Positions 14,266 to 39,437 of a stretch of 51,842 nt of DNA are shown here, piece after piece (the stretch's first letter is position 1; each line of letters opens with the position of its first letter). This stretch comes from a virus (lineage: Duplodnaviria; Caudoviricetes). Location: positions 1 through 51,842 of IMG/VR virus record IMGVR_UViG_3300012953_000044. The stretch is one strand, 5' to 3'. Made by a program: the position numbers and the translations under genes. Under the pieces are notes generated by a model, which had not been told where the DNA came from, did not search any database, and saw only the letters and a program-made list of their open reading frames with translations.

Positions 14266-15429
14266 ATGGACGAAAATCAAACACCGAAAATAACGGTAAG
14301 GGAAGTTACCGGAGAAGAAAAATCTCGAGCACAAGTAGAGGAGGTATTACTAAAAAAGCATGAAGAAAAACATAATGTTGAAGAAAGTAAGACTGACGTG
14401 GAGAGAGTGGATACAAGCACTGAGAGTTCCACCCCCGAGAATAAACAAGAAGAAGTACAACAGAAAGATGAAACACAAGAAGCCTCATCAAGCTTAACTG
14501 ATGAAAACGTTCTTTCATATATTAAAGAAAGGTATAATAAAGACATATCTTCTGTGGATGATTTGTTTGCTCAAAGAGAGTTAAATGAAGACTTACCTGA
14601 AGATGTAGCTGCATACTTTCAATACAAAAAAGAAACGGGTCGTGGAATTGGTGATTTTGTAAAATTACAACAAGATTACGATTCTATGGATAATGATAGA
14701 TTGTTGTCTCAATATTATTCTCAAACCGAAGAAGGTTTAGATAGTGAGGATATTAAAGACTTAATGGATGAAAAGTTTGGATATGATTCAGATTTAGATG
14801 ATCCTAAAGAAATTAAGAAAATTGAGAGAGCAAAGAAAAAGGAACTTGTTAAAGCTAAGAAGTTTTTTACTGAACAAAAAGATAAATATAAAACTCCTCT
14901 TGAGTCAAGTGGGAGCGGATTATCTGACGAGGACAGAGAAAAATTTAATAGCTATAAAAGTTATATAGAAGAGTCGACCTCTGCTCAAGAGGCCCAGAAG
15001 AAAAGGTATGATTATTTTTTAGATAAGACCAATGAGGTCTTTAACGATGAATTCAAAGGTTTTGAGTTTAATGTCGGAGAAAAAAGTTTTACATTTAAAC
15101 CTGGAGATAACAAAGAGTTGAAGAGCAAACAATCTGACGTTAATAATTTCGTGAATAAATACATGGATGAAAAAACAGGATTGATTGCAGACCCAGCTGG
15201 TTATCATCGCGCTATGTCGGTGGCTATGAATTTAGATAAGTTTGCTGAATTCTTTTACAATCAAGGTGTTACCTCGGCTGTAGATGATGTAAGTAAGAAG
15301 TCTAAAAACATAAACATGGAAATGCGTAGAACTCCAACTAATCTAAGTAAAGATGGCTTAAAGATTAGAACGGTTGGAGACACAAGTAGTGGAAGAGGGC
15401 TCAAAATTAGAAGTATTAAAAAAAGTTAA
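14266..15429 (+). CDS. Capsid scaffolding/assembly protein
   Basis: Highly acidic helical protein between portal and major capsid gene; basic C-terminal GLKIR repeats. Confidence 0.7.
   Translation: MDENQTPKITVREVTGEEKSRAQVEEVLLKKHEEKHNVEESKTDVERVDTSTESSTPENKQEEVQQKDETQEASSSLTDENVLSYIKERYNKDISSVDDLFAQRELNEDLPEDVAAYFQYKKETGRGIGDFVKLQQDYDSMDNDRLLSQYYSQTEEGLDSEDIKDLMDEKFGYDSDLDDPKEIKKIERAKKKELVKAKKFFTEQKDKYKTPLESSGSGLSDEDREKFNSYKSYIEESTSAQEAQKKRYDYFLDKTNEVFNDEFKGFEFNVGEKSFTFKPGDNKELKSKQSDVNNFVNKYMDEKTGLIADPAGYHRAMSVAMNLDKFAEFFYNQGVTSAVDDVSKKSKNINMEMRRTPTNLSKDGLKIRTVGDTSSGRGLKIRSIKKS
14360..14497 (+). CDS. Nested +1-frame basic peptide (45 aa) with ArfA-like KKKYNRKMKHK motif
   Basis: Own translation MKKNIMLKKVRLTWREWIQALRVPPPRINKKKYNRKMKHKKPHQA*; alternative ATG at 14375; host frame uses atypical GC-ending codons here. 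Confidence 0.55.
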   Translation: MKKNIMLKKVRLTWREWIQALRVPPPRINKKKYNRKMKHKKPHQA

Positions 15430-20902: not shown

Positions 20903-23900
20903 ATGGCAGATATTAGATCAAATTTTATAGCCGGAAGAATGAACAAAAGCGTTGATGAACGCTTGGTTCCTCAAGGAGAATATGTGGACGCAAATAACGT
21001 GCGATTAGGTTCTACAGAAACCACTGAGATTGGAGCGGTAGAAAATTCTAAAGGAAATACTCAATTAACTTTTTTAGCATACAAAGGTAATCCTTTGTCA
21101 GAGCCTGCTATTGCTACTGACCCACAAACTACTTTTGCTATAGGATCATTTGAAGATGGAATGGAAGAAACTATATATTGGTTTATTCATGATTCTAATG
21201 CAGGAGCAGCATCTCCTACAGGGAAGATAGATATGATTGTGTCTTTCAATACAAATACTAATACGGTTACTTACCATGTTATTTCTTTGTGGGATGGAGT
21301 GGCAGGTTCAGGAAAAACTACTTTAAATTTTAACCCTAAAAATTTAGTTACAGGAATTAATAAAATAGAAGATTTATTATATTTTACTGATGACTTAAAC
21401 CCTCCGCGATATATAAATGTAACCAGAAATTATGATGACCCATCTGCAGGAGGGCTTGATGGGATAGAAGAAGAAGATGTTAATGTGATTGTAAAACCCC
21501 CTGGGTTTGAAGATTCTGTGGGTGGCTCTAATCCATTACCAGTTCCCGTGGTAGTTTTAGAAAATTTTCCTGGAGATGAAAATTATATGGAAACACGGTT
21601 TCTTTGTTTTGCATATAGATATAGATATACTGATGGGGGTTATAGTGCCACTTCTTTATTTAGTCAACCAGCTTTTCAGCCAGGAGCCTTTAGGTTTAAT
21701 TTAGATAATTATACCAATGCAGGAATGGTAAACCGTTATAATGGGGCTACTGTTCAATTTTCTACAGGCTCTTCTCGTGTAGTTCAAGTAGATTTATTAT
21801 ATAAAGAAAGTACTTCTAACGTTATTTATGTAATAGAGAGATATAATAAAAAAGACTTAGGGTGGTCTGATGATTCTTTACAGAGTTTAACCTTTAGTAA
21901 TAGTAAAATATTTACAACATTAGGATCTGATGAGTTATTAAGGCAGTATGATAACGTACCTCGTATTGCTAAAGCTCAAACTATTCAAGGCAATAGATTG
22001 ATTTATGGAAATTATATAGACGGTTATGATATTGAAAATGCAAATGGTCAAAAAATTCCTATTTCCTTCCGTACTGACCATATTATACAAGAAATAGGAG
22101 GGGTAGGATTACCTACACCTGTTGCTACTAATGGTGATATTTATTCAATTGGTCAGCCAAATGGAGGGGGTATTAATAATTCTCTGATTACTTTTGATTT
22201 ATCAAGTTTAGACCTTCCTATTCCAGCAGGGCTAACCCTTACTTTTGAAGTTTCTGTACAATCAGCGCCATCGGGAGGTACAGCCATAAACCCTCAAGGT
22301 GTGGGGCCAGATATTGATCTTAATTTTCAAAACACATCTCCTTTTGCTTTAACTTGGCAGTTTATATGTCCCACATCTTACGCATCGGTAAATAACCTTT
22401 TAACCTCTACTGAGTTTCAACAAGCTATTGGTACCGATCTTACAAATAACTTTCAACCTTTATTACCTACAAACCTTTCTAATCAAGGGGGGACATTAAC
22501 TGATAAATTTAATAATGCTATTCAAGCTCCTCCCCTCACACCGTTAGAAATTATAAATACCTCTATCACAGGTGGTGGTTGTCCTACCCTGGGCAATCCT
22601 TCTACTGCTATTTGTAATCAGCAAGGTTTTGGTTATACGGTTGCCGGTAGTACTTTTTCTATTCAAGTTCCTGCTGCCCACTATTGTTATCAAGATATTG
22701 ATCCAACTACTGGGGCTATTATTAGTACATCTTCACAATTTGAGTTCTTTAATTTTGTAGATTTCAGTAGTACAGTCGGATATCTTTTAACAGCTGACAC
22801 TTATAGTTTGCATAGTAATAGAGATTACGAAACAGGTATTGTATATATGGATGATTATGGCAGAGCATCTACAGTTTTAGTATCTACCGATAACACAATA
22901 TATATTCCACCAATTGATTCGGTAGCTAAAAATACTATTGAAGTAACATTAAGTAATCTTCCACCTTATTGGGCTTCTAAATACAAGTTCGTAGTAAAAC
23001 CAAGTCAAGGTGAATATTTTACTATATATTCATCTTCTTATAGTGAAGATGCGAAAGACCCTTCAGTGTTTTGGTTTAGACTTGATGGTAACAATACTAA
23101 TTTAGTAAGTATTGGTCAGACTTTAATTGTGAAAAGTGATACTAATGGGCCGACGAGTAGTGTAGTAGAGTGTGTGGTATTAGATATTGTAGGTATGTCT
23201 ACTGACGATGATGCGTTAGCAGACGCCAATACGGCTGGTACTTATATGTGTATAAAACCAGGTGGATTTTCTACAGAAACGGCAGCTTCTAATGTGATTG
23301 ATCATGGGGGTAAAGATAATAGTTCAAGTAGTACGAGTTGTAATTTATCTCACAGTTATAGTTTAAATGAATCAAGTTCTACAGGCCCTGGTCAGACTCC
23401 TTATGATTTACCAGCAGGATCAAGTATTAGGGTAAAGATTGATAACTGGAGGGGAAGCAAAGGAAGCAATTGCACCTCAAAGCATTATCGTTTTGATGAT
23501 GATTTTACAGCAAGTCAAGATTATCCTAATTTTTATTTATGGTGGTTTGGAGATAATGCAGATTTTACTACAGGTAGTAGTAACGGAGTAGACTGTTTTC
23601 AATACTTAGACAGTGGGTTAGGCCCTTTTAGTTCTGCGAATGCCAAGACTTCAGCCTGCTTTCAAACCAAAATATATTGCTATACTGATGGTACATCTTT
23701 AAATTTTAGAAATAGATGTGGGATCCCAAGATGTAGTTCTTTTTGGGGAGATCAAAGACCAGGGCATGTAGGGACAAGAATTGAAGTTGTAAAAGGAGGT
23801 GGGATGATAGTATGGGAAACTGTACCAGGGGAGGCAGATCCAAATTTATTTTATGATGCATCTCAGATGTATGATATATATACGGATGGAGGAATAAGAT

Positions 23901-25756
23901 ATCATAAGTCAGGTGGCCATCCTAATGACGTAGATCAAAATGCGAGTTTAGATTTAAAAGCTACTTTAAATTTTGCTGACTGTTTTACTTTTGGAAATGG
24001 AGTAGAAAGTTTTAGAATAAAAGATATGGCTGGAACTAAAACCTTCCAATTAGGAGAAAGAGTTTTAGCGGTATCAAATCAGGAATTCAAAGAAGCAAAT
24101 CGATTTGCAGGATTAACATATAGTGGAGTATATAGTGGTGCCGCTAACTCTAATAACCTTAATGAATTTAATTTAGGGTTAGTAAATTACAAAGATTGTG
24201 AGACTTCTTTTGGGCCTATTCAATTGCTTCATTCACGTGAAACAGATATTTTAGTTTTACAAGAAGATAGAATATCCTATGTATTAGCGGGTAAAAACGT
24301 AATTACTGATTCAACAGGGGGAGGAGCAATAGCTTCTGTACCTGAAGTTTTAGGAACTCAGATAGCTCGTATTGAAGAGTATGGGATAAGTTTTAATCCT
24401 GAGAGTTTTGCAGCATGGGGAGCAGATATGTTTTGGACTGATGCTAAAAGAGGGTCAGTAATAAATATGAGGGGAACATCTCGTAATACAGACCAAATTC
24501 AAATAGTATCGCAGTATGGAATGCGATCATGGTTTAGAGATCAATTTGCCGCTCAATTACAAACACAAAAAATTGGAGGATTTGACCCATATATGAATGA
24601 GTATGTATTATCTTCTAACGATACATCTATTCCAGTTCCTACAGTAGGAACTCCATGTGGAACTACTTTAACTCAAACTAATGCTACTAATAACTTGTCT
24701 TACATTGTAAATGTAGGAGAGACGGTAGGTAATATAGATATTCCGTATGTAGTAGTAGACGGAAGTATTACAGTAACAGCAACATGGAATGGTGTTCCTG
24801 TAACGGTAGGACCTACTAATACTAACGGTACTCTTTCTGTTAATAAAACAGCGAATACACCAAATGAAATAGAAATATTAGTAGAACCAACAGCATCATT
24901 TGGTCAAAGTGCATCTTATGAAATAACAGTAGACTGCCCACCACAACAAACTTTAACTATTATACGTATTGTATTAACATCGCAAAGTAGCGATGGTCAA
25001 TTTATACACTTTGGATATAATTGGACCGATGGATCTACTATAAGCCCAACACAAAGTGATTTAGCTTCTATGGGGTTACTTACACCAACTGAATATATAT
25101 CTCAAACAGGAGTTCGGTCGGTAGGGATGTTCCCTTATGCAGGGGCTGATGTAACTATGAACACTACTAAGATAGGTTTTGATGACTTTGATTTTGATTC
25201 ATCTTCTGATAAATTCTTATGGCTATCTTCTAATACTTTATACGGACCTAATACAACAGATATAAATGCATTATTAAACAATTCATCATTAGCTAATGTA
25301 ACTCCTATTGTAAATCCTTCTACTGGAACTTATAAAGGAACCTTTACTACTACTGCCGCTAATTTGCCATTAACCAATCAATATTTATATATGGTTTGGG
25401 ATTTAAGAGAGGCAACAGGAAGTCTATTATGTTTCTCTGGATTTAATGAATCCGATGCATGTTGTGGGTGTAATCCAATCTGTAGCTATGCTTGGTTTAG
25501 TCCATCGAGAACTACTCAAACTCAAGCGTGTTTAGTAGATACTAATAGTCCAGGAGCTTTTCAAGGTTCGTGGCATGGGACAGGGCAAGTCCCGTTAATA
25601 GGAGAGGTTTGCTATACAGATCAGAACTGTAATGTATCATCAGTAGTATCTCCAGGATTCTATATTGTATCCCAATCCCAACCAGCTTCTCCACTTCCGA
25701 AAAGATGGATAGAAATAGGATCATATGGATCTGTAATAGCTTCAGGAACATGTTAA
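20903..25756 (+). CDS. Tail muzzle/stabilisation (nozzle-like) protein, N-terminal part with Cys-rich extension
   Basis: FIAGRMNKSVDERLVPQGEYVDANN start, GNRLIYGNY, GIVYMDDYGR, EYGISFNPESFA, GMRSWFRD motifs. Confidence 0.7.
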   Translation: MADIRSNFIAGRMNKSVDERLVPQGEYVDANNVRLGSTETTEIGAVENSKGNTQLTFLAYKGNPLSEPAIATDPQTTFAIGSFEDGMEETIYWFIHDSNAGAASPTGKIDMIVSFNTNTNTVTYHVISLWDGVAGSGKTTLNFNPKNLVTGINKIEDLLYFTDDLNPPRYINVTRNYDDPSAGGLDGIEEEDVNVIVKPPGFEDSVGGSNPLPVPVVVLENFPGDENYMETRFLCFAYRYRYTDGGYSATSLFSQPAFQPGAFRFNLDNYTNAGMVNRYNGATVQFSTGSSRVVQVDLLYKESTSNVIYVIERYNKKDLGWSDDSLQSLTFSNSKIFTTLGSDELLRQYDNVPRIAKAQTIQGNRLIYGNYIDGYDIENANGQKIPISFRTDHIIQEIGGVGLPTPVATNGDIYSIGQPNGGGINNSLITFDLSSLDLPIPAGLTLTFEVSVQSAPSGGTAINPQGVGPDIDLNFQNTSPFALTWQFICPTSYASVNNLLTSTEFQQAIGTDLTNNFQPLLPTNLSNQGGTLTDKFNNAIQAPPLTPLEIINTSITGGGCPTLGNPSTAICNQQGFGYTVAGSTFSIQVPAAHYCYQDIDPTTGAIISTSSQFEFFNFVDFSSTVGYLLTADTYSLHSNRDYETGIVYMDDYGRASTVLVSTDNTIYIPPIDSVAKNTIEVTLSNLPPYWASKYKFVVKPSQGEYFTIYSSSYSEDAKDPSVFWFRLDGNNTNLVSIGQTLIVKSDTNGPTSSVVECVVLDIVGMSTDDDALADANTAGTYMCIKPGGFSTETAASNVIDHGGKDNSSSSTSCNLSHSYSLNESSSTGPGQTPYDLPAGSSIRVKIDNWRGSKGSNCTSKHYRFDDDFTASQDYPNFYLWWFGDNADFTTGSSNGVDCFQYLDSGLGPFSSANAKTSACFQTKIYCYTDGTSLNFRNRCGIPRCSSFWGDQRPGHVGTRIEVVKGGGMIVWETVPGEADPNLFYDASQMYDIYTDGGIRYHKSGGHPNDVDQNASLDLKATLNFADCFTFGNGVESFRIKDMAGTKTFQLGERVLAVSNQEFKEANRFAGLTYSGVYSGAANSNNLNEFNLGLVNYKDCETSFGPIQLLHSRETDILVLQEDRISYVLAGKNVITDSTGGGAIASVPEVLGTQIARIEEYGISFNPESFAAWGADMFWTDAKRGSVINMRGTSRNTDQIQIVSQYGMRSWFRDQFAAQLQTQKIGGFDPYMNEYVLSSNDTSIPVPTVGTPCGTTLTQTNATNNLSYIVNVGETVGNIDIPYVVVDGSITVTATWNGVPVTVGPTNTNGTLSVNKTANTPNEIEILVEPTASFGQSASYEITVDCPPQQTLTIIRIVLTSQSSDGQFIHFGYNWTDGSTISPTQSDLASMGLLTPTEYISQTGVRSVGMFPYAGADVTMNTTKIGFDDFDFDSSSDKFLWLSSNTLYGPNTTDINALLNNSSLANVTPIVNPSTGTYKGTFTTTAANLPLTNQYLYMVWDLREATGSLLCFSGFNESDACCGCNPICSYAWFSPSRTTQTQACLVDTNSPGAFQGSWHGTGQVPLIGEVCYTDQNCNVSSVVSPGFYIVSQSQPASPLPKRWIEIGSYGSVIASGTC

Positions 25757-26746: not shown

Positions 26747-27526
26747 ATGTCTACTTACAAACCTAAAACATTATCATATAGCGAAGAAGCCAAAGGGTGG
26801 CCTTCTTTCTATTCTTATCTACCAGAACAAATGATAGGTATGAATAGTTATTTTTATAGCTTTAAAGGGGGAAACTTATTTAGACACAATACTAATGAAA
26901 CTCGAAATAACTATTATAACATACAGTATAATTCAGAGATTACAGGAGTATTTAATACTGAACCTCAAACTATTAAGCTCTTTAAGACTATGTCTTATGA
27001 GAGTGATGAGGCGTGGGCATGTACATCTTTATTAACAGAGTTAGGGACAGGCTCTATGTTGTCTACTTATTTCCAACAAAAAGAAAGAGAATGGTTTACA
27101 TTCTTGAGAGAAAATGAACCTACTATTAATTTTAGAGCGAGATCTGCTAATGGTATAGGAAATTGTGATACAGTAACTGGTATTGTAACCGCTAACGTAC
27201 TTACATTTAATGTAGATGTAGGAAGTATAATAACTGCAGGAGATTTTTTATGTCAAGCGCCAGCTGGTGTTCCTATTTATAGGGGTCAAGTAACAGATGT
27301 TGATAGAGTAAATAACACGGTTACTATCAATACTACTATTACTGATACTCAAGGAACTGCCGGATCTCCAGCGCTACCAACCACCTATACTTTGTTTTAT
27401 AAAAACGCACAAGCAGAATCACATGGGGCACGTGGATATTTTATGCAATTTACATTAGAAAACACATCAACTAATCCTGTTGAATTATTTTCTGTAGGTA
27501 GTAGCGTGATGAAAAGTTATCCATAG
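26747..27526 (+). CDS. Probable C-terminal portion of the muzzle/stabilisation protein encoded separately
   Basis: TLSYSEEAKGWPSFYSYLPE...SFKGGNLFRHN and RGYFM...VELFSV motifs typical of the end of such proteins. Confidence 0.6.
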   Translation: MSTYKPKTLSYSEEAKGWPSFYSYLPEQMIGMNSYFYSFKGGNLFRHNTNETRNNYYNIQYNSEITGVFNTEPQTIKLFKTMSYESDEAWACTSLLTELGTGSMLSTYFQQKEREWFTFLRENEPTINFRARSANGIGNCDTVTGIVTANVLTFNVDVGSIITAGDFLCQAPAGVPIYRGQVTDVDRVNNTVTINTTITDTQGTAGSPALPTTYTLFYKNAQAESHGARGYFMQFTLENTSTNPVELFSVGSSVMKSYP

Positions 27527-27959: not shown

Positions 27960-28925
27960 ATGGCAGTAGCAACAGCAGCAGTAATAGGTATAGCCGCAAC
28001 AGGAGCCTCTACTTACATGAGTTTTTCCGCGGCAGCAAAAGAAAAAGAGGCTAAAGAAAAAGCAGACGCCGAAGCAAAGAAAGCATTAGCAGACGCAAGA
28101 GGAAGAGCGGAGAAAGATTTTTATGGAGGATTAGCTGTACCATTAGATGCTTATGAAGCGGAGTTTGAAAACAATTTAGCTGTCGCGCAGCAAAGCACAG
28201 AGGCTTTACAAGAGGGTGATGCCAGATCTTTAGCCGCAGGTGTAGGTAGAATAGGAGCGCAAGCTTCTGATACTTCGGAAAAGGCTCGTATAGGTATGGG
28301 TCAAGAAATATCAGACTTAAACGCAATGAAAGCTCAGTCTAAAGACGCTGTTAATCAACAGCTTATGCAGATGGATGTAGCGGCAGCACGAGATGCGGCG
28401 CAACGATCAAGAGAATCTGAAGCGGCTCGATCTGCACATATATCACAAGGGGTACAAGGTATAGGAGCTACTGTTAGTGCAATAGGATCGGCTGCTCCGT
28501 TGTTTGGTAAAAAGGCTCCTGCACCAACAACTCCAGGTGGAGGAGGTCCAAGTTTTAGTCAACAAGCATCACAAAGTCAATTGACAACTGGGGCAGGTGG
28601 ATTAATGGGAGGAAATCAAAGTGCTTTTGGATCCGGTGGAGGCCCAAGTTTAGGGGTTAACAATCCTTTTGAAGGGCTTGGAGGCTTTACTCCAAGTGCA
28701 TTATCTCCTAATTATTTCGGATCAGATAGAAGATTAAAAGAAAATATTAAGTTAATTGGACAGTCTCCAAGCGGTTTAAATATATATAGTTTTAAATATA
28801 AAAATGAAGAAGGTATTTATCAGGGTGTTATGTCAGATGAAATAGATCCAAATGCGGTAATTAGAGCAGGTGAATACGATATGGTAAACTATTCTATGAT
28901 TGACGTAGAATTTAAAAAATTATAA
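27960..28925 (+). CDS. Putative ejection/pilot protein with C-terminal peptidase S74 (intramolecular chaperone) domain
   Basis: Ala/Gly-rich amphipathic N-terminus; SDRRLKENI...IYSFKY...QGVMSDEI...VNYS from 28722. Confidence 0.7.
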   Translation: MAVATAAVIGIAATGASTYMSFSAAAKEKEAKEKADAEAKKALADARGRAEKDFYGGLAVPLDAYEAEFENNLAVAQQSTEALQEGDARSLAAGVGRIGAQASDTSEKARIGMGQEISDLNAMKAQSKDAVNQQLMQMDVAAARDAAQRSRESEAARSAHISQGVQGIGATVSAIGSAAPLFGKKAPAPTTPGGGGPSFSQQASQSQLTTGAGGLMGGNQSAFGSGGGPSLGVNNPFEGLGGFTPSALSPNYFGSDRRLKENIKLIGQSPSGLNIYSFKYKNEEGIYQGVMSDEIDPNAVIRAGEYDMVNYSMIDVEFKKL

Positions 28926-30965: not shown

Positions 30966-33900
30966 ATGGAAAAATTAGAAGAATTATATTCATTAATTCC
31001 TGAAGGGATGTACTCTTCACTCGAGGAGTTCCAATTAGATTTAGAACAAGAAGGATTAGAGTCTATATTTGAACTTATACCTGAGGGTATGTATACCGAT
31101 CTTGAAGAATTTACAAATGACTTTGTTGAGGTAAAAAAAAAAGACGAATCACAACCTACTGGGGAAGAGGAAGTTACGGAATCCGATATCGATATTCAAA
31201 CGGAAATTCCTGGCTTATCGGATGCTTCTCTTCCGGAAGATCCTAATATACCCCAAGACCCTTCTATAGAAGTAGATCAACCATCTCAATTTGCAAGTGA
31301 GTCTCCAGAAGGAGAAGAAGAGATTGTTACAGAACAAGTCCAGTATGACCCTATGGAAAGAGGGGTAGACGCTACCGTTACTTATGATGTAGATGCGACA
31401 CCATTTGAAAGATCCTTATCTTATATAACTGGTGACTTAATTGAAAGAGAAGAAGAAGAAGTGGTTTCTAAAATGAAATACCATTTTACTGATTATGGTT
31501 TTGAGTTTGAAGAAACCGGAATAGGTGACAAAATGATTGTTACAGCTGACAATGGAAAAGTATTAGAAGTAAATTTAGATCCAAACTTTGGATTAAGAAG
31601 TGAAGAAATATCCTTAGAACTTAAAGAATTTTTAGAAAAAAATAAAGTAGTTAATCCTGATATAGATTTATTAATGGAAGATTACGATGAAAGTCGTAAA
31701 AAGTATTTTTCTACCGAAGCTATGCAGGCAGATATAAAAGATATACACACTCAAGCGAGTACTCTCACTAAAAGATACAAACAATTTCTTTCTAATTCTA
31801 ACGATAATCAAGCACAAATAGATGCGTTAATGGAACTTCCGCAGTTAAGTGATGAGCAGGTTGTGTTATATAATGAATTAATAGATAATAAGAAAAATCT
31901 ATTACTAACTAAAAGTAATTTACAAAAAGAATTTAAAGAATTTAAAACATATGAATCTCAAATTAGTGCGGCTGTAGGGGATTATGTAGCTATGAAACAA
32001 GATATAGGTAATGAGTTTGGTACATTAGTAAAAGGAATGTATAATGCTTTTGCAACTCAAGCGGTACCTAAAATGGTAGCGTCAGCCTGGGGCTTGGGGG
32101 TGGATGGTTTTTACGCGATTGCTCAAGCAATTGATGAGGATTATGGAATGGATGAGGAAGAGAAAAAAGAAAGATATATAGAGGTAGCTAAAGATTTAGG
32201 ATATGAAGTGCCGGAGAATATAAATGAAGAAGGTGTTTTTGAATCTTGGTTTGATCAAATGATGAACACAACATTTGCGGGAGAAGCAGAAACTATAGTA
32301 GATATTTTTCCAGGAGAGATTAAAGAACAATTGATTGCTGAAAATTACGACCCCACTAAAGTTAAAAGAACCAATAGAAGCTTTGAAATATGGAAAGAAG
32401 ATGGGGGATTATTAGGCACTGGAGGTTACGAAGATGTTCCGGTTTACGCTAAAGATATAAGTAGAGGAGCGCGATTAAAACGTTTAGTGTTAGATAGAGA
32501 AGTTAAAGAAAACAAACAACCTCAAAAGGCGGCAATTAGATCAGCTTTAGAGTGGGCAGCAGCAGAAGGGGTGTCTGATGAAAAGGTAGAGGAGATGATG
32601 CAAAAGAGCTGGATATATGAAGGTATGTTCGGTTTAGCAGAATCAGGACCCGCTATCCTGTTAGGGTTATTAGGCCCAGGGAAACCAAAAGCTATAAAGA
32701 AAGGAGCGGGCCTATTAAAAAATACAGGTACTCGATTTAAGAATTATCTACAAAGCCCAGGAGCTATGGCTCAAACCATGGGGTTTAGTTTGTTACAAAC
32801 TGATCATTTAATGGAGGAGATGGCAAATGATCCTGATTTTAAAAATGTAACTGAGACCGAAAAGAAAGCTATAATTTTTCCTTTAGCCATCACTACAGCA
32901 GTATTAGAAAGATATGGTCTTAGAAACATAGCAAGAAATAAAACTATCACTACAGGATTAATGAATCAAGTAACTCGAATGTTACCTAAAGGAGCAACCC
33001 CTAAACTCTTTAAAGAAACTTTAGAGAAAGTAGTATCTAACAATGTAGCACGTGGTATTTATAGGGTGGGAGGAGCTGCATTAGCTGAAGCGGAAACAGG
33101 TGGTCTGCAGCAGGTAGCGGAGATAGGACTTAAAAACGTATGGAATAACATGTATGAAAAAGACATGTTTAACACCCCTGAAATGTGGTCTGAAGAGTTT
33201 GGGGATCAAGTAGTTAGAGCAGCTTTAGCTGAATCTGTAGGAGGATTTGTGTTAGGGTTACCGGGAGGATTAAGCGCAGCATTTAGTAAAGGGGAGATTG
33301 ATGGAGTTCCGGATGAGATGGTTCAGCTTTTTAATACTATCCGTACGGATGAGGTAACTACTGAAGCGTTTAGATCTCAGTTAGATATTAAGGTAGCGAA
33401 TAAAGAAATAACTAAAGAAGAAGCTGCGCAGCAATTAATGAATTTTGAAATTTTATCTGGAGCGGCTCAAACTATTGAAAAGGGAGCGGTATTAAACGAA
33501 GATCAAACTAAAAAAGCTTTAGGGTTAGTTTTCTTAAAACAAAAAATAGAAAACGAGATGGAGGGTATGGACCCTGATCTGGGAACTTATAAAGCAAAAC
33601 AAGAGACGGTGGCTAAGATAAAAGATAAGTTATCTAAGATAGGTACCGATAAAGAAGAGTCAGCTAATTTAAAAGAAGAAACAACTAAAACACAAGACGA
33701 TGCCATTCAAGAGCCAAGCACAGAGACGGTGGATGTACAAGTACAAGCCGAAGATGGCAGAACTATGGGAGATGGAGACACCGAGACGAATATTACCAGA
33801 GAGGGTCAACAAGAAGAACAAACCCCTGTTGGGCAGGAGACGCAGGAGGAAGTAACGATTGAAGAACGATCCGAACAAATAGGTAAATTAATTGAGCAAG

Positions 33901-36900
33901 AAAAAGAAGATTCTCAAACCGAACCTCAACCTATTCCTCGTGAACAATTAGAGGTGGTAGATGAGGTAATATCTATTAATAAAGCCCAACAAGAGGTAAC
34001 AGAAGAAAACCCTTTTAAACAAGGAGTAATAGAGAGAGTAGGTAAAGCAGCCAAAGCTTTAAAGAAAGTCATTCCTAATCTAAAAATTATTATGCATGAG
34101 AGTGCAACTGATTTTAATAAAGCATCAGGTAGAACAGGAAGAGGAGCGTTAGTAGATGGGGTGGTGCATATTAATTTAGAAAAAGCAACCAACTCTACAG
34201 TAGCTCATGAGGCTTTTCATATTGTCTTGCTTAGTAAGTTAGGTACAGATTCCGAAGCTCAAAGAGTTACTAAAAGAATGATGGAATCTATTGCTAAAGC
34301 ACTACCTAAGAATGATCCATTGTTAAAACAAATCAATGAGTTTACACAAGGGTATGAGGCGAATATTCAAAACGAAGAAAAGTTAGCAGAAATACTCGGT
34401 CAGCTATCTGCTAATTATAAAACATTATCAGCGCCGCAGAAGAGTGTTATTGGTAAATGGATTGATAGAATAATGAAAGGATTAGGAATAAATGTATCTG
34501 AGTTTACTCAGTCTGATCAAGATGTTATTGATTTACTTAACACATTAGCATCCAAAGTAACCGCAGGAGTTGAGGTTGAAGAAGGAGATATAAAAGTTAT
34601 AGAAGAGATTAGAGAAGAAACAGGAACGGAGCCTGTTGGTAATCCTACTAACATTAATAAACCTAAATCCAGAGACCAAAAAGAAATAAACTTTAAAAAG
34701 TCTTATGACATGTCTTTGGTTACTCCGGAAAACAAAATAGATTTGTTAGGATTGGTAGATGAGATTGTAGCTAAGAATCAAAAGGTATGGTTCTGGGTAG
34801 CGGACCAGTTAGGTAAAGGAGAATTTAACGGTATTGAAATGGATGCGGGTCCAAGCTATGCGTTAGATCCTACAAATTTAGCTGCTAATATTATATGGGC
34901 AAGTGGTATGAAGCCTAAAGCTATGGCTAACAATGTAGAAAAAGCCGACTATATATTTATTATTAGTGGTTCACCACAAGCCAGTAAACTATTTAACAAA
35001 AAAGTATTTGATGCTTTTGTAAATAAATTAGGAGACTATGCTGCATTTAAAAAATCAGCATTAGCTACTAATCCGGTAAAAGCCGTAAGAGATATATTAG
35101 AAAAGCATGATAGCTGGCCTTCTATCAGGAGAGATGGTAACGGTAGGAAAGGATTACTTAAAGCAATTGTTGCTCAAGAATCTACTCCTAATACTGAATT
35201 CCATAAGCTTGTTAAATCTAAAGATGGTTTTATAAACTTAGATGAATTAAGAGATGGGTTTTACAGAGATAATAACTTTGAGCAAAATGATGTAATGTTG
35301 GTGTTGAAACCAACTGAAGTTGGTGGAAAGTCAAAGCACTCAACTTATGAGACTGATATATTGGGAGAGGTAGTAGGTGTTCCTAATATTAAGTTGGATG
35401 CTTTTGAGATTATGCCTGAAAGTGTTAAAGCTAAATATGAAGGAAAAGAAATGGGTAGGGTGCTGAAAACCCAGGTGGTAGCTCCTTATGGAACAGGAGT
35501 TAAAAAAATTGCTAAACCTGCTAAGAAAAAACCTGCAATTCGTGAGCAGAAAGAATCTAAGCCTACCGTAGAAAAGTTAGCTAACTTTTATGCTATGGAT
35601 AATAAAGGTTTTATTAAGCCTGGGAATGTTTATGACTTAGATGCATTAAGACAATTTGCTTCTCGAGTAGGTTATAAAGTAAAAAGACATCGTGGTGATA
35701 GTGGTGCTACCACAATGTATTCTTTACGTGATGCTAATGATAGACAATTTGTTCCTGTAAAAGGAACTGCACGAACGCGTTTCCAAAAAATTATGGATAA
35801 GTTTGATAGTCCGATGGAGATTATTAAGTTAGCAAGACAAGCTGGTTTTGAGGATACAGAGATAAGTTACTTCTTGCGTAATGAAAAGAAATTAAAAGTT
35901 AAAGAAATAAAAGATCTTCTTAAAGTAGATGTAGATATGTTTGAATCCATGCCTGCTGTATTTGGAAATATCCCAGGTGGTATGGTGGTAGGACGTAAGT
36001 TATATGAAGCTACAATAAAAAAGTTTGAGTCTTTATTACAGAAAAATTCTAAACTTACAAAGGGTAAGCAACGAAATATATCAGATATTATTCAGGAGTC
36101 TATTGAATATATGATGGAGCAAACTCCATATAAGAATGCTACCGAAGGAGTTAAGTCTAAAACATTACCATCTACATTACAACAGCAGCTTCAAATAGAA
36201 ATGCAAGAAGCATTAGGAGGAAGTGCTGTTAAAGATATTAGCAAAACTATTTCCAATCTTAAAAAGATTGTAAGTGAAAAGAAAAGAGGAGCTCGAGAAA
36301 TAAGAGATGTAAAAAGACAATTACAAAGAGCTATTAGAGAAGTAATGCCTAAAGGAGTTTATACCTCTACAGAGGTGAGAAAACTTTTAAGAACTATTCA
36401 AGAGGCTGAACCTAAATGGTTGAAAGGAAATTTAAAAAATCTTGTTCAACAGATAGAAAAAATGGCAGCAGAAAAAAATGTAGATATTTTAAATAAAGCA
36501 ATTGATAAAATATTAAAGCAAAAGTTTGAAGCTGTAGTCTCAGGTATTAAGAAAGGAGTTAAGGTAGATAGTAAGACAGCTAAAATTATTAAAGCAATAG
36601 AGGATAAACTTTATAAGTCCGCTGAAATAAAAGACAATATTGAAAAAGAACAAACAGAGATCTTAGCTAAGATTAATGAGATAAATTTTAAAACTGTTTT
36701 AACGGAGGAGGACCAAACTAATTTATTGATTTTAAACACTGCTTTGGCTATTAATAATTCTAAGTTGATGGAAGATAATAACCCTCGTAAAGCAGATCAA
36801 TTAGCTGAAGTATATAATAATTTAAAAGCCCTCATCTTACAAGGAAGAAATAACTACAAAGAAGCGGCTGCCGAACGATCTAAAAGATATGCTGATAATA

Positions 36901-39437
36901 CGGCAAAGTTTTATCAAGCTTTAACAGGGAGTAAAAACGAGTTAGACTTTAAAGATCCTGATGTTATAGAAAAAATAAAAGAAAAGTTAAAAGCAGATAA
37001 AGATGAGAAGGGAAGTGAGAAAAAACAAGAGGAAAAGGGAGTCAAAAGAATTATAGCTCACTTTAACAATTTAGGAGAAAAAATAATGAGCACTCTAAGG
37101 AGTGCCACTTTAAATTTAGGAGAGCTTACTTCAACATTAGACAAACTTCCTGGCGATGTAATGGGTGAAGGTTTTATAAAAGACTTTATATATCGTAAAG
37201 TAAACCAGTCTACTCGGGTATATAAAGAAAGTATAATGGCTTTAGACCAGATGATGGCTGAAAAAACGGAAGAGTTTTTAGGTAAAGATTATAAATCTAA
37301 ACTAAAAGATTATAGAAAGTATTTAGATTTCACTCAAATAGAAGGAGGTAAGTTTATGAAAAACCCTAAAGAAGTTAAAGATGCTCAAGATAAATATGAT
37401 CAAGATCCTTCGGACACTAATGCTAAGGCCTTACAGAAAGCAGTTAACCGTAATATTCCTTTCTCCGGTCTTACTGCTATGGATTTAATGTATCTCTATT
37501 TTCAGTATAAACAAACAGATACACATGCAGGATTTCAAACTGCTTTAGGAGCTAACTCTGATGTCATTATGGAAGGATTGAGTAAGTACTTTGAAGATAA
37601 CTATCAAGATTTATTAGAGCTCGGAAACTGGCATGTTAATTCTTTGTTTCCATCTTTATATGAAAAGTATAATAAAGTATATAAAACTATATATAATACT
37701 GATTTACCTCAACGAGAAAATTATGCGGGTAGAACATTCAGGCAATTAGATACTAAAACAAAACTTAAAAAAATACAGGAACTAAATAGTCTTGCTTTAC
37801 TTAATGAGATTGGTACTTCTCAAATGAGCACCAATGTAATTGGTAACTCTACTAAGTTAACAGTCAAAAACAAACAGGCTATTATGCCGATAGATTTTTT
37901 TAGTGCTGTAGATTCTTACTTAAAAGACATGGAACATTTCTCTGCTTACGCAGAAAACATGAATGAAATATCTAAGGTTTATTTTAATGAGATTATTGCA
38001 GATGAAATTATAAATCAGTACGGAAAAGAAATGTACGAAACTATAAGAACTGCTTTAATTAACACAGCAACAAGAGGTTCTATGCAATCTGATGCTATGG
38101 TTGGGAAAGTAAATAGTTTTAATAACTTATTTGTTCTTCAAAAATTAGGGGCTGGATTATCTATATATCTTAAGCAGCTTACTTCATCGGTAGCATATGG
38201 AGATGCTATTGGTTTTAGAAACTGGTTGAAAACTGCTATGACGATGGGGCCAAAAGAATTTATAAAAACGTGGCAAGAAATATCTGAAGACTCAGTGTAT
38301 ATTAAGTATAGATATTGGGAAAATATAAACAAAACTATTGAGGCTTATGGAGAGAAAACTTTAGAAGGATATACTCCTGGAGATAAAGGAGATAAACTCA
38401 TGCGATTATTTATGTCTCCAATTAAAGCGGGTGATAAGCAAGCAATATTTATAGGAGGTATTCCAATGTATGTATTCTTAAAAAAGAAATTTATAAAACA
38501 AGGAATGAGTGAGGAAGCTGCTCAGAAGAAAGCCCTATTAATGTTTGAAGAACAAACTAAAGAAGTTCAGCAGTCATCGGACCGACAAGATAAAGATAAT
38601 ATTCAAAATCAAGGAGGTTATGTTCAGTTCTTTAATATGTTTATGTCTGCTCCTAAAGCATACTTCCGTAAATTATTTGGAGGGTATAGAGAACTACGTA
38701 GAAATATAAAAGACGGATCAGGGAAAGGAACTTCGTGGGATAATGCTCGGACTATTGCTCTTTATCAATTTGGATTACCGATGATATTCCAGTGGGCTAC
38801 ATCTGGTTTTCCGATTACGGACTGGGATGATGAAGACACTGAAGATTTAGGAAGATCTGCAATTCTAAGTGTGTTTAATTCTATTTTTATTGTAGGTCAA
38901 ATTGCGGAAATGGTAGCAGATAGATATCAAAAGAAACCATGGTGGAAAGATACTAATCAATTCCCTGTAATAGATTTAGCTACAGATGTGGCAGATAAAT
39001 TAGGTAGAGCTATTGAGGAAGAAGACTCATCAAAATCTTTACAACTATATAAAGAAGCTCTTTATGCTTTATTGCCGCTCACTGGTGGTGCTGGAGTTCC
39101 AATTAAATATGCTTCTATTCCAATGCCTACCTTAGATAGAATGGCTCAGAACCTCTACAAGATAGGTAGAAGCGGAGGGGATCCTAAAGAAGTATTTTTA
39201 AGGTTGTTTAATTATTCAGATTATATTATTGAAGGAGGTAAAAATAAAACTAAACCTAAAAAACGTAGGAAACTTACTAAAACTGAGATGAGAAAATATT
39301 TCCCAGAGTATATGGAAGCTATGGATGATTTTAATAACTCACCTCAAATGAAAGAGTTTAATCAAAAGAAGAAAGACTATAAGGCTCAAGAGAAAAAAAT
39401 AAGACAGGAGATGTTAGACGACATGTTTAAAAAATAA
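30966..39437 (+). CDS. Giant internal virion / large polyvalent protein with zincin-like metallopeptidase motif (2823 aa)
   Basis: VAHEAFH at 34200-34220 with downstream EEKLAE; Gly/Ala-rich helical region; C-terminal helical region typical of large ejection proteins. Confidence 0.7.
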   Translation: MEKLEELYSLIPEGMYSSLEEFQLDLEQEGLESIFELIPEGMYTDLEEFTNDFVEVKKKDESQPTGEEEVTESDIDIQTEIPGLSDASLPEDPNIPQDPSIEVDQPSQFASESPEGEEEIVTEQVQYDPMERGVDATVTYDVDATPFERSLSYITGDLIEREEEEVVSKMKYHFTDYGFEFEETGIGDKMIVTADNGKVLEVNLDPNFGLRSEEISLELKEFLEKNKVVNPDIDLLMEDYDESRKKYFSTEAMQADIKDIHTQASTLTKRYKQFLSNSNDNQAQIDALMELPQLSDEQVVLYNELIDNKKNLLLTKSNLQKEFKEFKTYESQISAAVGDYVAMKQDIGNEFGTLVKGMYNAFATQAVPKMVASAWGLGVDGFYAIAQAIDEDYGMDEEEKKERYIEVAKDLGYEVPENINEEGVFESWFDQMMNTTFAGEAETIVDIFPGEIKEQLIAENYDPTKVKRTNRSFEIWKEDGGLLGTGGYEDVPVYAKDISRGARLKRLVLDREVKENKQPQKAAIRSALEWAAAEGVSDEKVEEMMQKSWIYEGMFGLAESGPAILLGLLGPGKPKAIKKGAGLLKNTGTRFKNYLQSPGAMAQTMGFSLLQTDHLMEEMANDPDFKNVTETEKKAIIFPLAITTAVLERYGLRNIARNKTITTGLMNQVTRMLPKGATPKLFKETLEKVVSNNVARGIYRVGGAALAEAETGGLQQVAEIGLKNVWNNMYEKDMFNTPEMWSEEFGDQVVRAALAESVGGFVLGLPGGLSAAFSKGEIDGVPDEMVQLFNTIRTDEVTTEAFRSQLDIKVANKEITKEEAAQQLMNFEILSGAAQTIEKGAVLNEDQTKKALGLVFLKQKIENEMEGMDPDLGTYKAKQETVAKIKDKLSKIGTDKEESANLKEETTKTQDDAIQEPSTETVDVQVQAEDGRTMGDGDTETNITREGQQEEQTPVGQETQEEVTIEERSEQIGKLIEQEKEDSQTEPQPIPREQLEVVDEVISINKAQQEVTEENPFKQGVIERVGKAAKALKKVIPNLKIIMHESATDFNKASGRTGRGALVDGVVHINLEKATNSTVAHEAFHIVLLSKLGTDSEAQRVTKRMMESIAKALPKNDPLLKQINEFTQGYEANIQNEEKLAEILGQLSANYKTLSAPQKSVIGKWIDRIMKGLGINVSEFTQSDQDVIDLLNTLASKVTAGVEVEEGDIKVIEEIREETGTEPVGNPTNINKPKSRDQKEINFKKSYDMSLVTPENKIDLLGLVDEIVAKNQKVWFWVADQLGKGEFNGIEMDAGPSYALDPTNLAANIIWASGMKPKAMANNVEKADYIFIISGSPQASKLFNKKVFDAFVNKLGDYAAFKKSALATNPVKAVRDILEKHDSWPSIRRDGNGRKGLLKAIVAQESTPNTEFHKLVKSKDGFINLDELRDGFYRDNNFEQNDVMLVLKPTEVGGKSKHSTYETDILGEVVGVPNIKLDAFEIMPESVKAKYEGKEMGRVLKTQVVAPYGTGVKKIAKPAKKKPAIREQKESKPTVEKLANFYAMDNKGFIKPGNVYDLDALRQFASRVGYKVKRHRGDSGATTMYSLRDANDRQFVPVKGTARTRFQKIMDKFDSPMEIIKLARQAGFEDTEISYFLRNEKKLKVKEIKDLLKVDVDMFESMPAVFGNIPGGMVVGRKLYEATIKKFESLLQKNSKLTKGKQRNISDIIQESIEYMMEQTPYKNATEGVKSKTLPSTLQQQLQIEMQEALGGSAVKDISKTISNLKKIVSEKKRGAREIRDVKRQLQRAIREVMPKGVYTSTEVRKLLRTIQEAEPKWLKGNLKNLVQQIEKMAAEKNVDILNKAIDKILKQKFEAVVSGIKKGVKVDSKTAKIIKAIEDKLYKSAEIKDNIEKEQTEILAKINEINFKTVLTEEDQTNLLILNTALAINNSKLMEDNNPRKADQLAEVYNNLKALILQGRNNYKEAAAERSKRYADNTAKFYQALTGSKNELDFKDPDVIEKIKEKLKADKDEKGSEKKQEEKGVKRIIAHFNNLGEKIMSTLRSATLNLGELTSTLDKLPGDVMGEGFIKDFIYRKVNQSTRVYKESIMALDQMMAEKTEEFLGKDYKSKLKDYRKYLDFTQIEGGKFMKNPKEVKDAQDKYDQDPSDTNAKALQKAVNRNIPFSGLTAMDLMYLYFQYKQTDTHAGFQTALGANSDVIMEGLSKYFEDNYQDLLELGNWHVNSLFPSLYEKYNKVYKTIYNTDLPQRENYAGRTFRQLDTKTKLKKIQELNSLALLNEIGTSQMSTNVIGNSTKLTVKNKQAIMPIDFFSAVDSYLKDMEHFSAYAENMNEISKVYFNEIIADEIINQYGKEMYETIRTALINTATRGSMQSDAMVGKVNSFNNLFVLQKLGAGLSIYLKQLTSSVAYGDAIGFRNWLKTAMTMGPKEFIKTWQEISEDSVYIKYRYWENINKTIEAYGEKTLEGYTPGDKGDKLMRLFMSPIKAGDKQAIFIGGIPMYVFLKKKFIKQGMSEEAAQKKALLMFEEQTKEVQQSSDRQDKDNIQNQGGYVQFFNMFMSAPKAYFRKLFGGYRELRRNIKDGSGKGTSWDNARTIALYQFGLPMIFQWATSGFPITDWDDEDTEDLGRSAILSVFNSIFIVGQIAEMVADRYQKKPWWKDTNQFPVIDLATDVADKLGRAIEEEDSSKSLQLYKEALYALLPLTGGAGVPIKYASIPMPTLDRMAQNLYKIGRSGGDPKEVFLRLFNYSDYIIEGGKNKTKPKKRRKLTKTEMRKYFPEYMEAMDDFNNSPQMKEFNQKKKDYKAQEKKIRQEMLDDMFKK
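31133..31246 (+). other. Candidate programmed -1 frameshift / transcriptional slippage cassette
   Basis: A10 run (31133-31142), stem-loop 31163-31234, -1 frame open 34 codons to TAA 31244-31246. Confidence 0.45.
33700..33855 (+). CDS. Nested +1-frame basic peptide (51 aa), MPFKS-xxQRRWM type small phage protein
   Basis: Own translation MPFKSQAQRRWMYKYKPKMAELWEMETPRRILPERVNKKNKPLLGRRRRRK*; A-rich leader with A at -3; local GC rise in host frame. Confidence 0.65.
   Translation: MPFKSQAQRRWMYKYKPKMAELWEMETPRRILPERVNKKNKPLLGRRRRRK

Follow-up and report, generated by a model that had tools for sequence, protein, structure and literature searches.

A nested basic gene in the acidic linker of a giant phage structural protein and its predicted nucleic-acid-binding product

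The nested frame and the giant gene around it

The window analysed here is the whole stretch of 51,842 nucleotides covering positions 1 to 51,842 of the IMG/VR virus record IMGVR_UViG_3300012953_000044. Its structural operon closes with a gene for a protein of 2823 residues, and a second frame, complete from start to stop, lies inside this uninterrupted longer ORF. The features of the locus are:

30966..39437, + strand: host gene (2823 aa), closing the structural operon
33686..33699, + strand: A-rich leader without a Shine-Dalgarno sequence; A at -13, -12, -11, -6 and -3; 61-nt region predicted to be unstructured
33699..33854, + strand: host-frame reading of the nested-ORF DNA, an acidic stretch, giant residues 912-963
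33700..33855, + strand: 51-aa nested ORF, frame +1 relative to the giant gene, 156 bases
33927..34607, + strand: conserved host domain after the linker, with an HExxH motif at residue 1081; putatively zincin/MPTase-like

Re-translation reproduced the sequence, frame, length, peptide and leader given for 33700..33855 in a preliminary description of this DNA. The ATG of the nested ORF sits under host residue D912. The two readings of the overlap are opposite in charge: the 51-aa peptide (6.5 kDa, pI 11.7) contains 18 K+R, and the host reading contains 15 D+E against 2 K+R. An AlphaFold2 model of the peptide (pLDDT 81) comprises two short helices, predicted at residues 6-15 and 17-26 around an invariant Pro17, and a loose, K/R-rich basic tail. 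In size and charge the product resembles the protamine/histone-like internal head proteins, which are small and strongly basic. The 51-aa sequence includes no cysteine and no hydrophobic run, and an embedded spanin or lysis gene was rejected because the peptide has no lipobox, transmembrane or hydrophobic segment.

The signal within the window by itself is modest to weak, and it is the comparison with relatives that lifts the nested frame above chance. Synonymous recoding of the host gene left the nested frame open in 14% of trials, a figure that applies to the window copy only. The local excess of C/G-ending codons claimed in the preliminary description exists as a value (GC3 of 0.43 versus 0.24 gene-wide) but is not distinctive, another 53-codon stretch reaching 0.42.

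The window carries genes for GroES, terminase, portal, a scaffold-position protein and capsid, in the gene order of the Elemovirus and Pervagoviridae (phi38:1) podoviruses. Its capsid protein is 47% identical to that of Elemovirus and 39% identical to that of Cellulophaga phage phi38:1, from which the phage would appear to be a flavobacterial podovirus. Residues 988-1214 of the giant are 38% identical to Elemovirus gp18, in which the HExxH motif is conserved. As in the window giant, gp18 carries the small gene, unannotated, across the Elemovirus records (68 listed); searches of phi38:1 and of Maribacter phage Panino for the nested gene returned no match. The giant is likely to be a polyvalent virion/ejection protein, a label based on its position, its homology to the annotated Elemovirus structural protein and its HExxH peptidase motif. 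It is late-operon and multidomain and has an HExxH motif, as do the phage polyvalent proteins with an MPTase domain (PMC5512222), but it differs from them in that Pfam and PHROG profiles gave no match to any part of it, LPD and MPTase included. The polyvalent-protein passages of the same source make no mention of a nested gene. Elsewhere in the window, a crAssvirus muzzle C-terminal domain is present at 26747-27526 (E 3e-11), and a 321-aa protein at 27960-28925 has a weak endosialidase-chaperone tail.

Conservation, selection and initiation of the nested frame

A peptide scan confirmed 485 of 600 candidate stretches. Among the 80 loci kept, 67 are nested in the +1 frame of an ORF of at least 300 codons, 1 is cut by a contig end, 7 stand alone and 5 are N-terminal in longer proteins. 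Since such a scan selects carriers, it was repeated with the 136-aa acetyltransferase-like gene located upstream. It gave 52 loci, and the nested frame is kept in all 35 that reach at least 900 codons into the giant; the other 17, which stop short of the giant or no more than 549 codons into it, are uninformative. As the 35 loci are related and partly the same contigs, they represent conservation in one clade and not 35 independent events. A search with the host domain retrieved only two loci, both with a nested copy. By synonymous chance, only about 6 of the 79 nested frames would be expected to be open.

Selection was examined frame by frame in 71 distinct gap-free 26-codon cores, 8 of the 79 copies being left out for indels or duplication. 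Entropy by host codon position is lowest at the third position (0.43) and highest at the first (0.81), the reverse of a normal gene, and in 2362 of 2485 pairs conservation is higher for the small protein than for the host protein. The ATG and the first two bases of Pro2 are invariant in all 79 copies, although two of these bases are host third positions, and the host codon at the nested ATG varies among D, N and Y. Substitutions were counted as isolated changes on a minimum spanning tree of the 71 cores; 282 clustered differences were set aside. Changes that leave the small protein intact and alter the host number 137 of 2140 possible (64 per 1000), those silent in the host and altering the small protein 30 of 3635 (8.3 per 1000), and those altering both 73 of 9766 (7.5 per 1000). 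Within this core, a change silent in the small frame is therefore about eight times as common as one silent in the host frame alone. These three rates indicate purifying selection on the small frame, with no visible extra cost for changes of host residues. The acidic "linker" of the host is thus the small gene's shadow, and little beyond the avoidance of stops constrains it. The preliminary description had proposed a real embedded gene shaping the host linker, and the homologues, the conserved +1 frame of related giants and the selection in each frame all support this proposal.

The initiation context of the small gene follows the lineage of the phage. Bacteroidota make no use of Shine-Dalgarno sequences and favour A at -13, -12, -6 and -3 (PMC6847099). 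The leader in the window is a poor example: with a matrix built from 30 of the window's own starts, the nested ATG ranks 181st of 605 out-of-frame ATGs and its leader scores below all 30 gene starts. Across homologues, AA occurs at -13,-12 in 51 of 60 distinct leaders, mainly from the giant-nested set and including two scaffold loci (9.3 expected from the in-gene background), and in 39 of 55 scaffold leaders (10.9 expected); A at -3 is found in only 39 of 79 copies. Eight further nested copies occur in giants of an unrelated podovirus lineage, whose capsid and portal families are different and whose polymerase is of the polA type, as seen in six records. These giants, one of which contains LPD23, share no clear similarity with the window giant outside the overlap and the flanking linker. 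Here six of the eight leaders, where 0.35 would be expected, contain GGAG or GAGG at -14..-5; in the two sets of Bacteroidota-type leaders the counts are 1 of 60 and 0 of 55, and 60 of 155 ordinary ORFs of this podovirus lineage have such a motif, against 0 of 91 in the Bacteroidota-type phages. The small gene has its own initiation signal across homologues, A-rich or Shine-Dalgarno by lineage; the leader tracks the ribosome of each lineage, as predicted for an independently translated gene. The motif TAnnTTTG is a Bacteroidota promoter; it shows no excess upstream of the nested gene (3 versus 13 expected). On these sequence data the nested ORF is very likely translated, and initiation would probably take place at an internal start on the structural-operon mRNA, yielding a basic helix-hairpin peptide.

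Two explanations dispense with an independently translated gene. The frame could be imagined as a relic that is not translated, or as arising incidentally from an acidic motif selected in the host frame, because any E/Q/D-rich linker reads K/R-rich in the +1 frame, and both the recoding result and the weak leader score of the window copy agree with this. Such a reading is nevertheless highly improbable, since the polarity of selection is opposite to that predicted, host third positions are invariant, the leader becomes a Shine-Dalgarno sequence where the phage uses one, and linkers without the small gene contain frequent +1 stops. Entry through +1 frameshifting of the ribosome, which would truncate the giant and add a basic tail, would suit a same-strand +1 frame that ends in a stop and a module sometimes fused to longer proteins. 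However, the ATG is invariant, the module is N-terminal in nearly all fusions, and 46 of the 79 copies have an in-frame stop no more than four codons upstream, which in 7 copies immediately precedes the ATG. Upstream frameshift entry is excluded for those 46 copies, and as a general explanation frameshifting is scarcely credible.

Family breadth, architectures and origin

The preliminary description noted a resemblance to a widespread stand-alone small phage protein, and such relatives were recovered by profile, stand-alone copies among them. Single-sequence searches with the 51-aa peptide found no homologue, nor does the peptide itself match PHROG or Pfam. Searches for the small-gene family matched 213 clusters at 50% and, by profile, 3230 database proteins; four of the top cluster rows inspected, the repeated-domain matches P0005, P0006, P0037 and P0153, are chance repeats. 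Members occur in Streptomyces, Mycobacterium and Pseudomonas phages. Among 132 aligned close homologues, 98 match phrog_1375 (best E 4e-8), a family of unknown function that includes mycobacteriophage Patience gp10, Barnyard gp9 and Indlulamithi gp3. The core K-S-x-x-Q...P...W/F...L-P and the basic tail are common to this family and are shared also by its sister phrog_16759 (201phi2-1 gp383). The alignment of gp383 to the family profile has a probability of 95.6%; Patience gp10 matches phrog_1375 at E 1e-31 and scores only 12.9 bits on the family profile (best shuffle 9.2). Known members of both families are stand-alone or N-terminal fusions, whereas the window copy lies out of frame inside another gene. 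DUF3008 (PF11450) was a lead at 0.85 only and was discarded, as 0 of 132 members match the Pfam profile. A relationship to the Patience capsid accessory protein gp4 was likewise rejected, the Patience member being gp10 and a PDB match being absent. Searches of the PDB by Foldseek, VIA-align and sequence found no structural relative that would speak for DNA binding, and fold searches matched uncharacterised viral proteins only. A stand-alone member at L001:3001-3105 is unannotated in Phage C75C1, and several Gordonia phage matches coincide with no annotated feature. In a two-cysteine subtype (L146, L154, L168, L124, L138 and L225), found in giant-nested and scaffold-nested copies alike, C...W-x-C replaces the aromatic core.

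The small gene occurs in several architectures. Four related phages have it stand-alone just after the giant, with no nested copy. In a sister clade gathered with the capsid protein of one carrier, in a scan covering 8 of 64 parts, the scaffold-position gene contains an intact +1-frame copy near codon 40-70 in 65 of the 80 loci listed; the remaining loci comprise 2 with premature stops, 1 in-frame fusion and 12 without a scaffold copy, one of which has the small gene in the giant. The premature stops (L145:1736 and L149:2902) replace a sense codon of relatives, an apparent decay. In the fusion (L164:2905-3948) the small gene is joined in frame to the scaffold body and the scaffold N-terminus ends in a stop; this is probably an indel, natural or due to assembly error. 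Like the split giant of L051, it is a single-contig indel and was not used as evidence.

Among 50 records searched, 43 matched, 42 of them with one copy; the seven blank records had been chosen for lacking a scaffold copy, and six are fragments. One 94%-complete record has no match to the small gene. On a quick capsid tree, absences are scattered beside close carriers, which suggests losses, and the small gene is dispensable in some lineages. Comparison of sequences also points to apparent allele swaps: L182 and L185 have capsids 98% identical and small proteins 41% identical, and the corresponding values for L191 and L217 are 93% and 38%. The peptide tree (48 columns) is mostly unresolved; it rejects the scaffold copies as one clade (p 0.008) and does not reject a single clade of all nested copies (p 0.41).

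A pre-existing gene was very probably captured, and not born in place. In de novo overprinting the embedded frame is narrower in distribution than the host frame; here the small family spans phages of several phyla and stands alone, and by the phylogenetic criterion reviewed for overlapping genes (PMC8227390) the small frame is ancestral, its family extending far beyond that of any host gene. Read in the -1 frame, stand-alone copies already resemble the host linker, with 0-2 stops per 38 codons in GC-rich examples and 2-8 in most of the AT-rich ones. In two loci (L238 and L266) the -1 frame of the stand-alone copy continues into the next gene. Because the -1 frame of this K/R-rich gene is D/E/Q-rich and, in GC-rich genomes, seldom interrupted by stops, a tolerant linker could take up the gene cheaply through read-through or recombination. 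An intermediate state of overlap is seen at L251:3001, where the -1 frame of a stand-alone copy is open from 283 bases upstream to codon 31. Birth of the giant by fusion of two genes around the small one is not required, as a homologous giant (L142) has a linker of similar length without the gene.

Possible function and relation to known embedded genes

Taken together, the data are best explained, with a probability of about 0.8, by a selected nested gene with its own start whose product is predicted to be a nucleic-acid-binding head peptide. A small gene in the +1 frame of the giant's acidic linker would be kept by selection on its own protein, and the peptide is predicted to bind nucleic acid and to ride into the phage head. 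The preliminary description had suggested a basic DNA/RNA-binding or core protein, and we infer the same from the following evidence. Stand-alone copies, which are also present in cultured phages, adjoin portal, terminase, protease, capsid/adaptor or GroES genes in 9 of about 30 stand-alone or fused loci scanned, most other neighbours being unnamed. Fusions place the module at the N-terminus of diverse proteins, some of them containing MuF, InPase or NUDIX, with the MuF match below cut-off. Patience gp10 is a listed virion protein detected by mass spectrometry, but its peptide entries are only 1/1 in particles, against 5/4 in early and 2/2 in late infected cells (PMC4324244). The sister module of the 201phi2-1 gp383 type opens two PHROG virion families and CBB_322, an 847-aa fusion and distant relative found in virions with 30 peptides (PMC5259590; CBB_322 was equated with the RefSeq gene by number). 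The 201phi2-1 gp383 protein is not flagged as a virion protein, whereas its neighbour is, and the RaK2 homologue of gp383 has no row in the text of PMC3622015. The specific notion that the product is a nucleic-acid binder acting late in association with the head, and that its module can also bring fused cargo into heads, is plausible but somewhat doubtful.

A real nested gene could also act elsewhere. Its product might be an accessory conflict factor acting in the host cell on ribosomes, RNA polymerase, RNA or a defence protein, which would accord with a dispensable gene subject to scattered losses, with very different alleles amid near-identical capsids (L182/L185, L191/L217) and with Patience gp10 peptides being more numerous in infected cells than in particles (PMC4324244). 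This is unlikely, although worth consideration: the same core occurs across phages of Bacteroidota, Actinobacteria and Proteobacteria, the gene is placed among head genes and not among early genes, and the sister module stands at the start of a protein of the virion. A role as assembly helper, with the product attaching to the acidic scaffold, portal or terminase while the prohead forms and being absent from the finished virion, is improbable. Nesting in the scaffold gene in 65 of the 80 sister-clade loci listed, a charge opposite to that of the scaffold, and stand-alone copies that follow portal or precede terminase speak for such a helper; yet capsid, portal and scaffold families differ among carriers, favouring a universal ligand, and the lone in-frame scaffold fusion (L164) looks like an indel. 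For the preferred reading, a head peptide that binds nucleic acid, a broader and tentative extension can be proposed: basic microgenes may form an exchangeable cassette that moves repeatedly into acidic scaffold and ejection linkers of unrelated lineages, re-tunes its leader to the ribosome of each host, exchanges alleles through recombination and provides a module that binds nucleic acid and loads into heads. If so, many "low-complexity linkers" of phages would be shadows of a hidden gene layer.

Nested phage genes are already known as a kind. Rz1 of lambda is embedded in Rz, and spanin genes occur in embedded, overlapped and separated architectures. As with the spanins, one family is found here both embedded and separate; spanin partners, however, work together and the host is always the partner, whereas in the present case host genes vary and seem to be mere carriers. 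Gene E of phiX174 lies inside D (PMC8227390), and two embedded ORFs in Patience genes 91 and 20 were detected by mass spectrometry and are poorly conserved (PMC4324244). Like these and Rz1, the nested gene is a complete same-strand out-of-frame gene with its own start. It differs from these examples in being, by the phylogenetic criterion, older and wider than its host, in not encoding a lysis protein and in occupying two unrelated host genes in at least two phage lineages, and from the Patience ORFs also in its conservation. No description of this family or of its nesting was found in the literature searched, in which subscription journals are thinly covered.

Gene callers discard fully nested frames, so that annotations miss the small gene, both in cultured Elemovirus records and in a complete podovirus record of GenBank; the host-frame shadow motif is matched by at least 596 database proteins. 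Overlaps are usually attributed to a new frame inside an old gene. Here the embedded gene is old and widespread, and at least two host genes appear to have acquired it and to have become, around it, a mere pass-through linker. The cultured Elemovirus carriers make the translation and function of a large uncharacterised family directly testable.

Other small frames lie close to the family. In Elemovirus gp18 of L225, the 5' end of the nested gene recurs over 10 codons at 23984-24016 behind the same leader, and a further basic +1 ORF, of 40 aa and preceded by an A-rich leader, lies at 23366-23488. In the scaffold gene of L216, a 27-aa lysine/serine-rich +1 ORF at about host codon 106 lies downstream of a family member, giving two hidden frames in one linker. 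The window itself contains a second nested +1 ORF at 14360-14497 (+ strand), which encodes a basic 45-aa product unrelated to the 51-aa peptide and is located within the acidic N-terminus of the scaffold-position gene. In 4 of 31 records a relative with 69-87% identity is nested in this same gene, and L182 and L185 have a second nested ORF related to it beside a member of the small-gene family.
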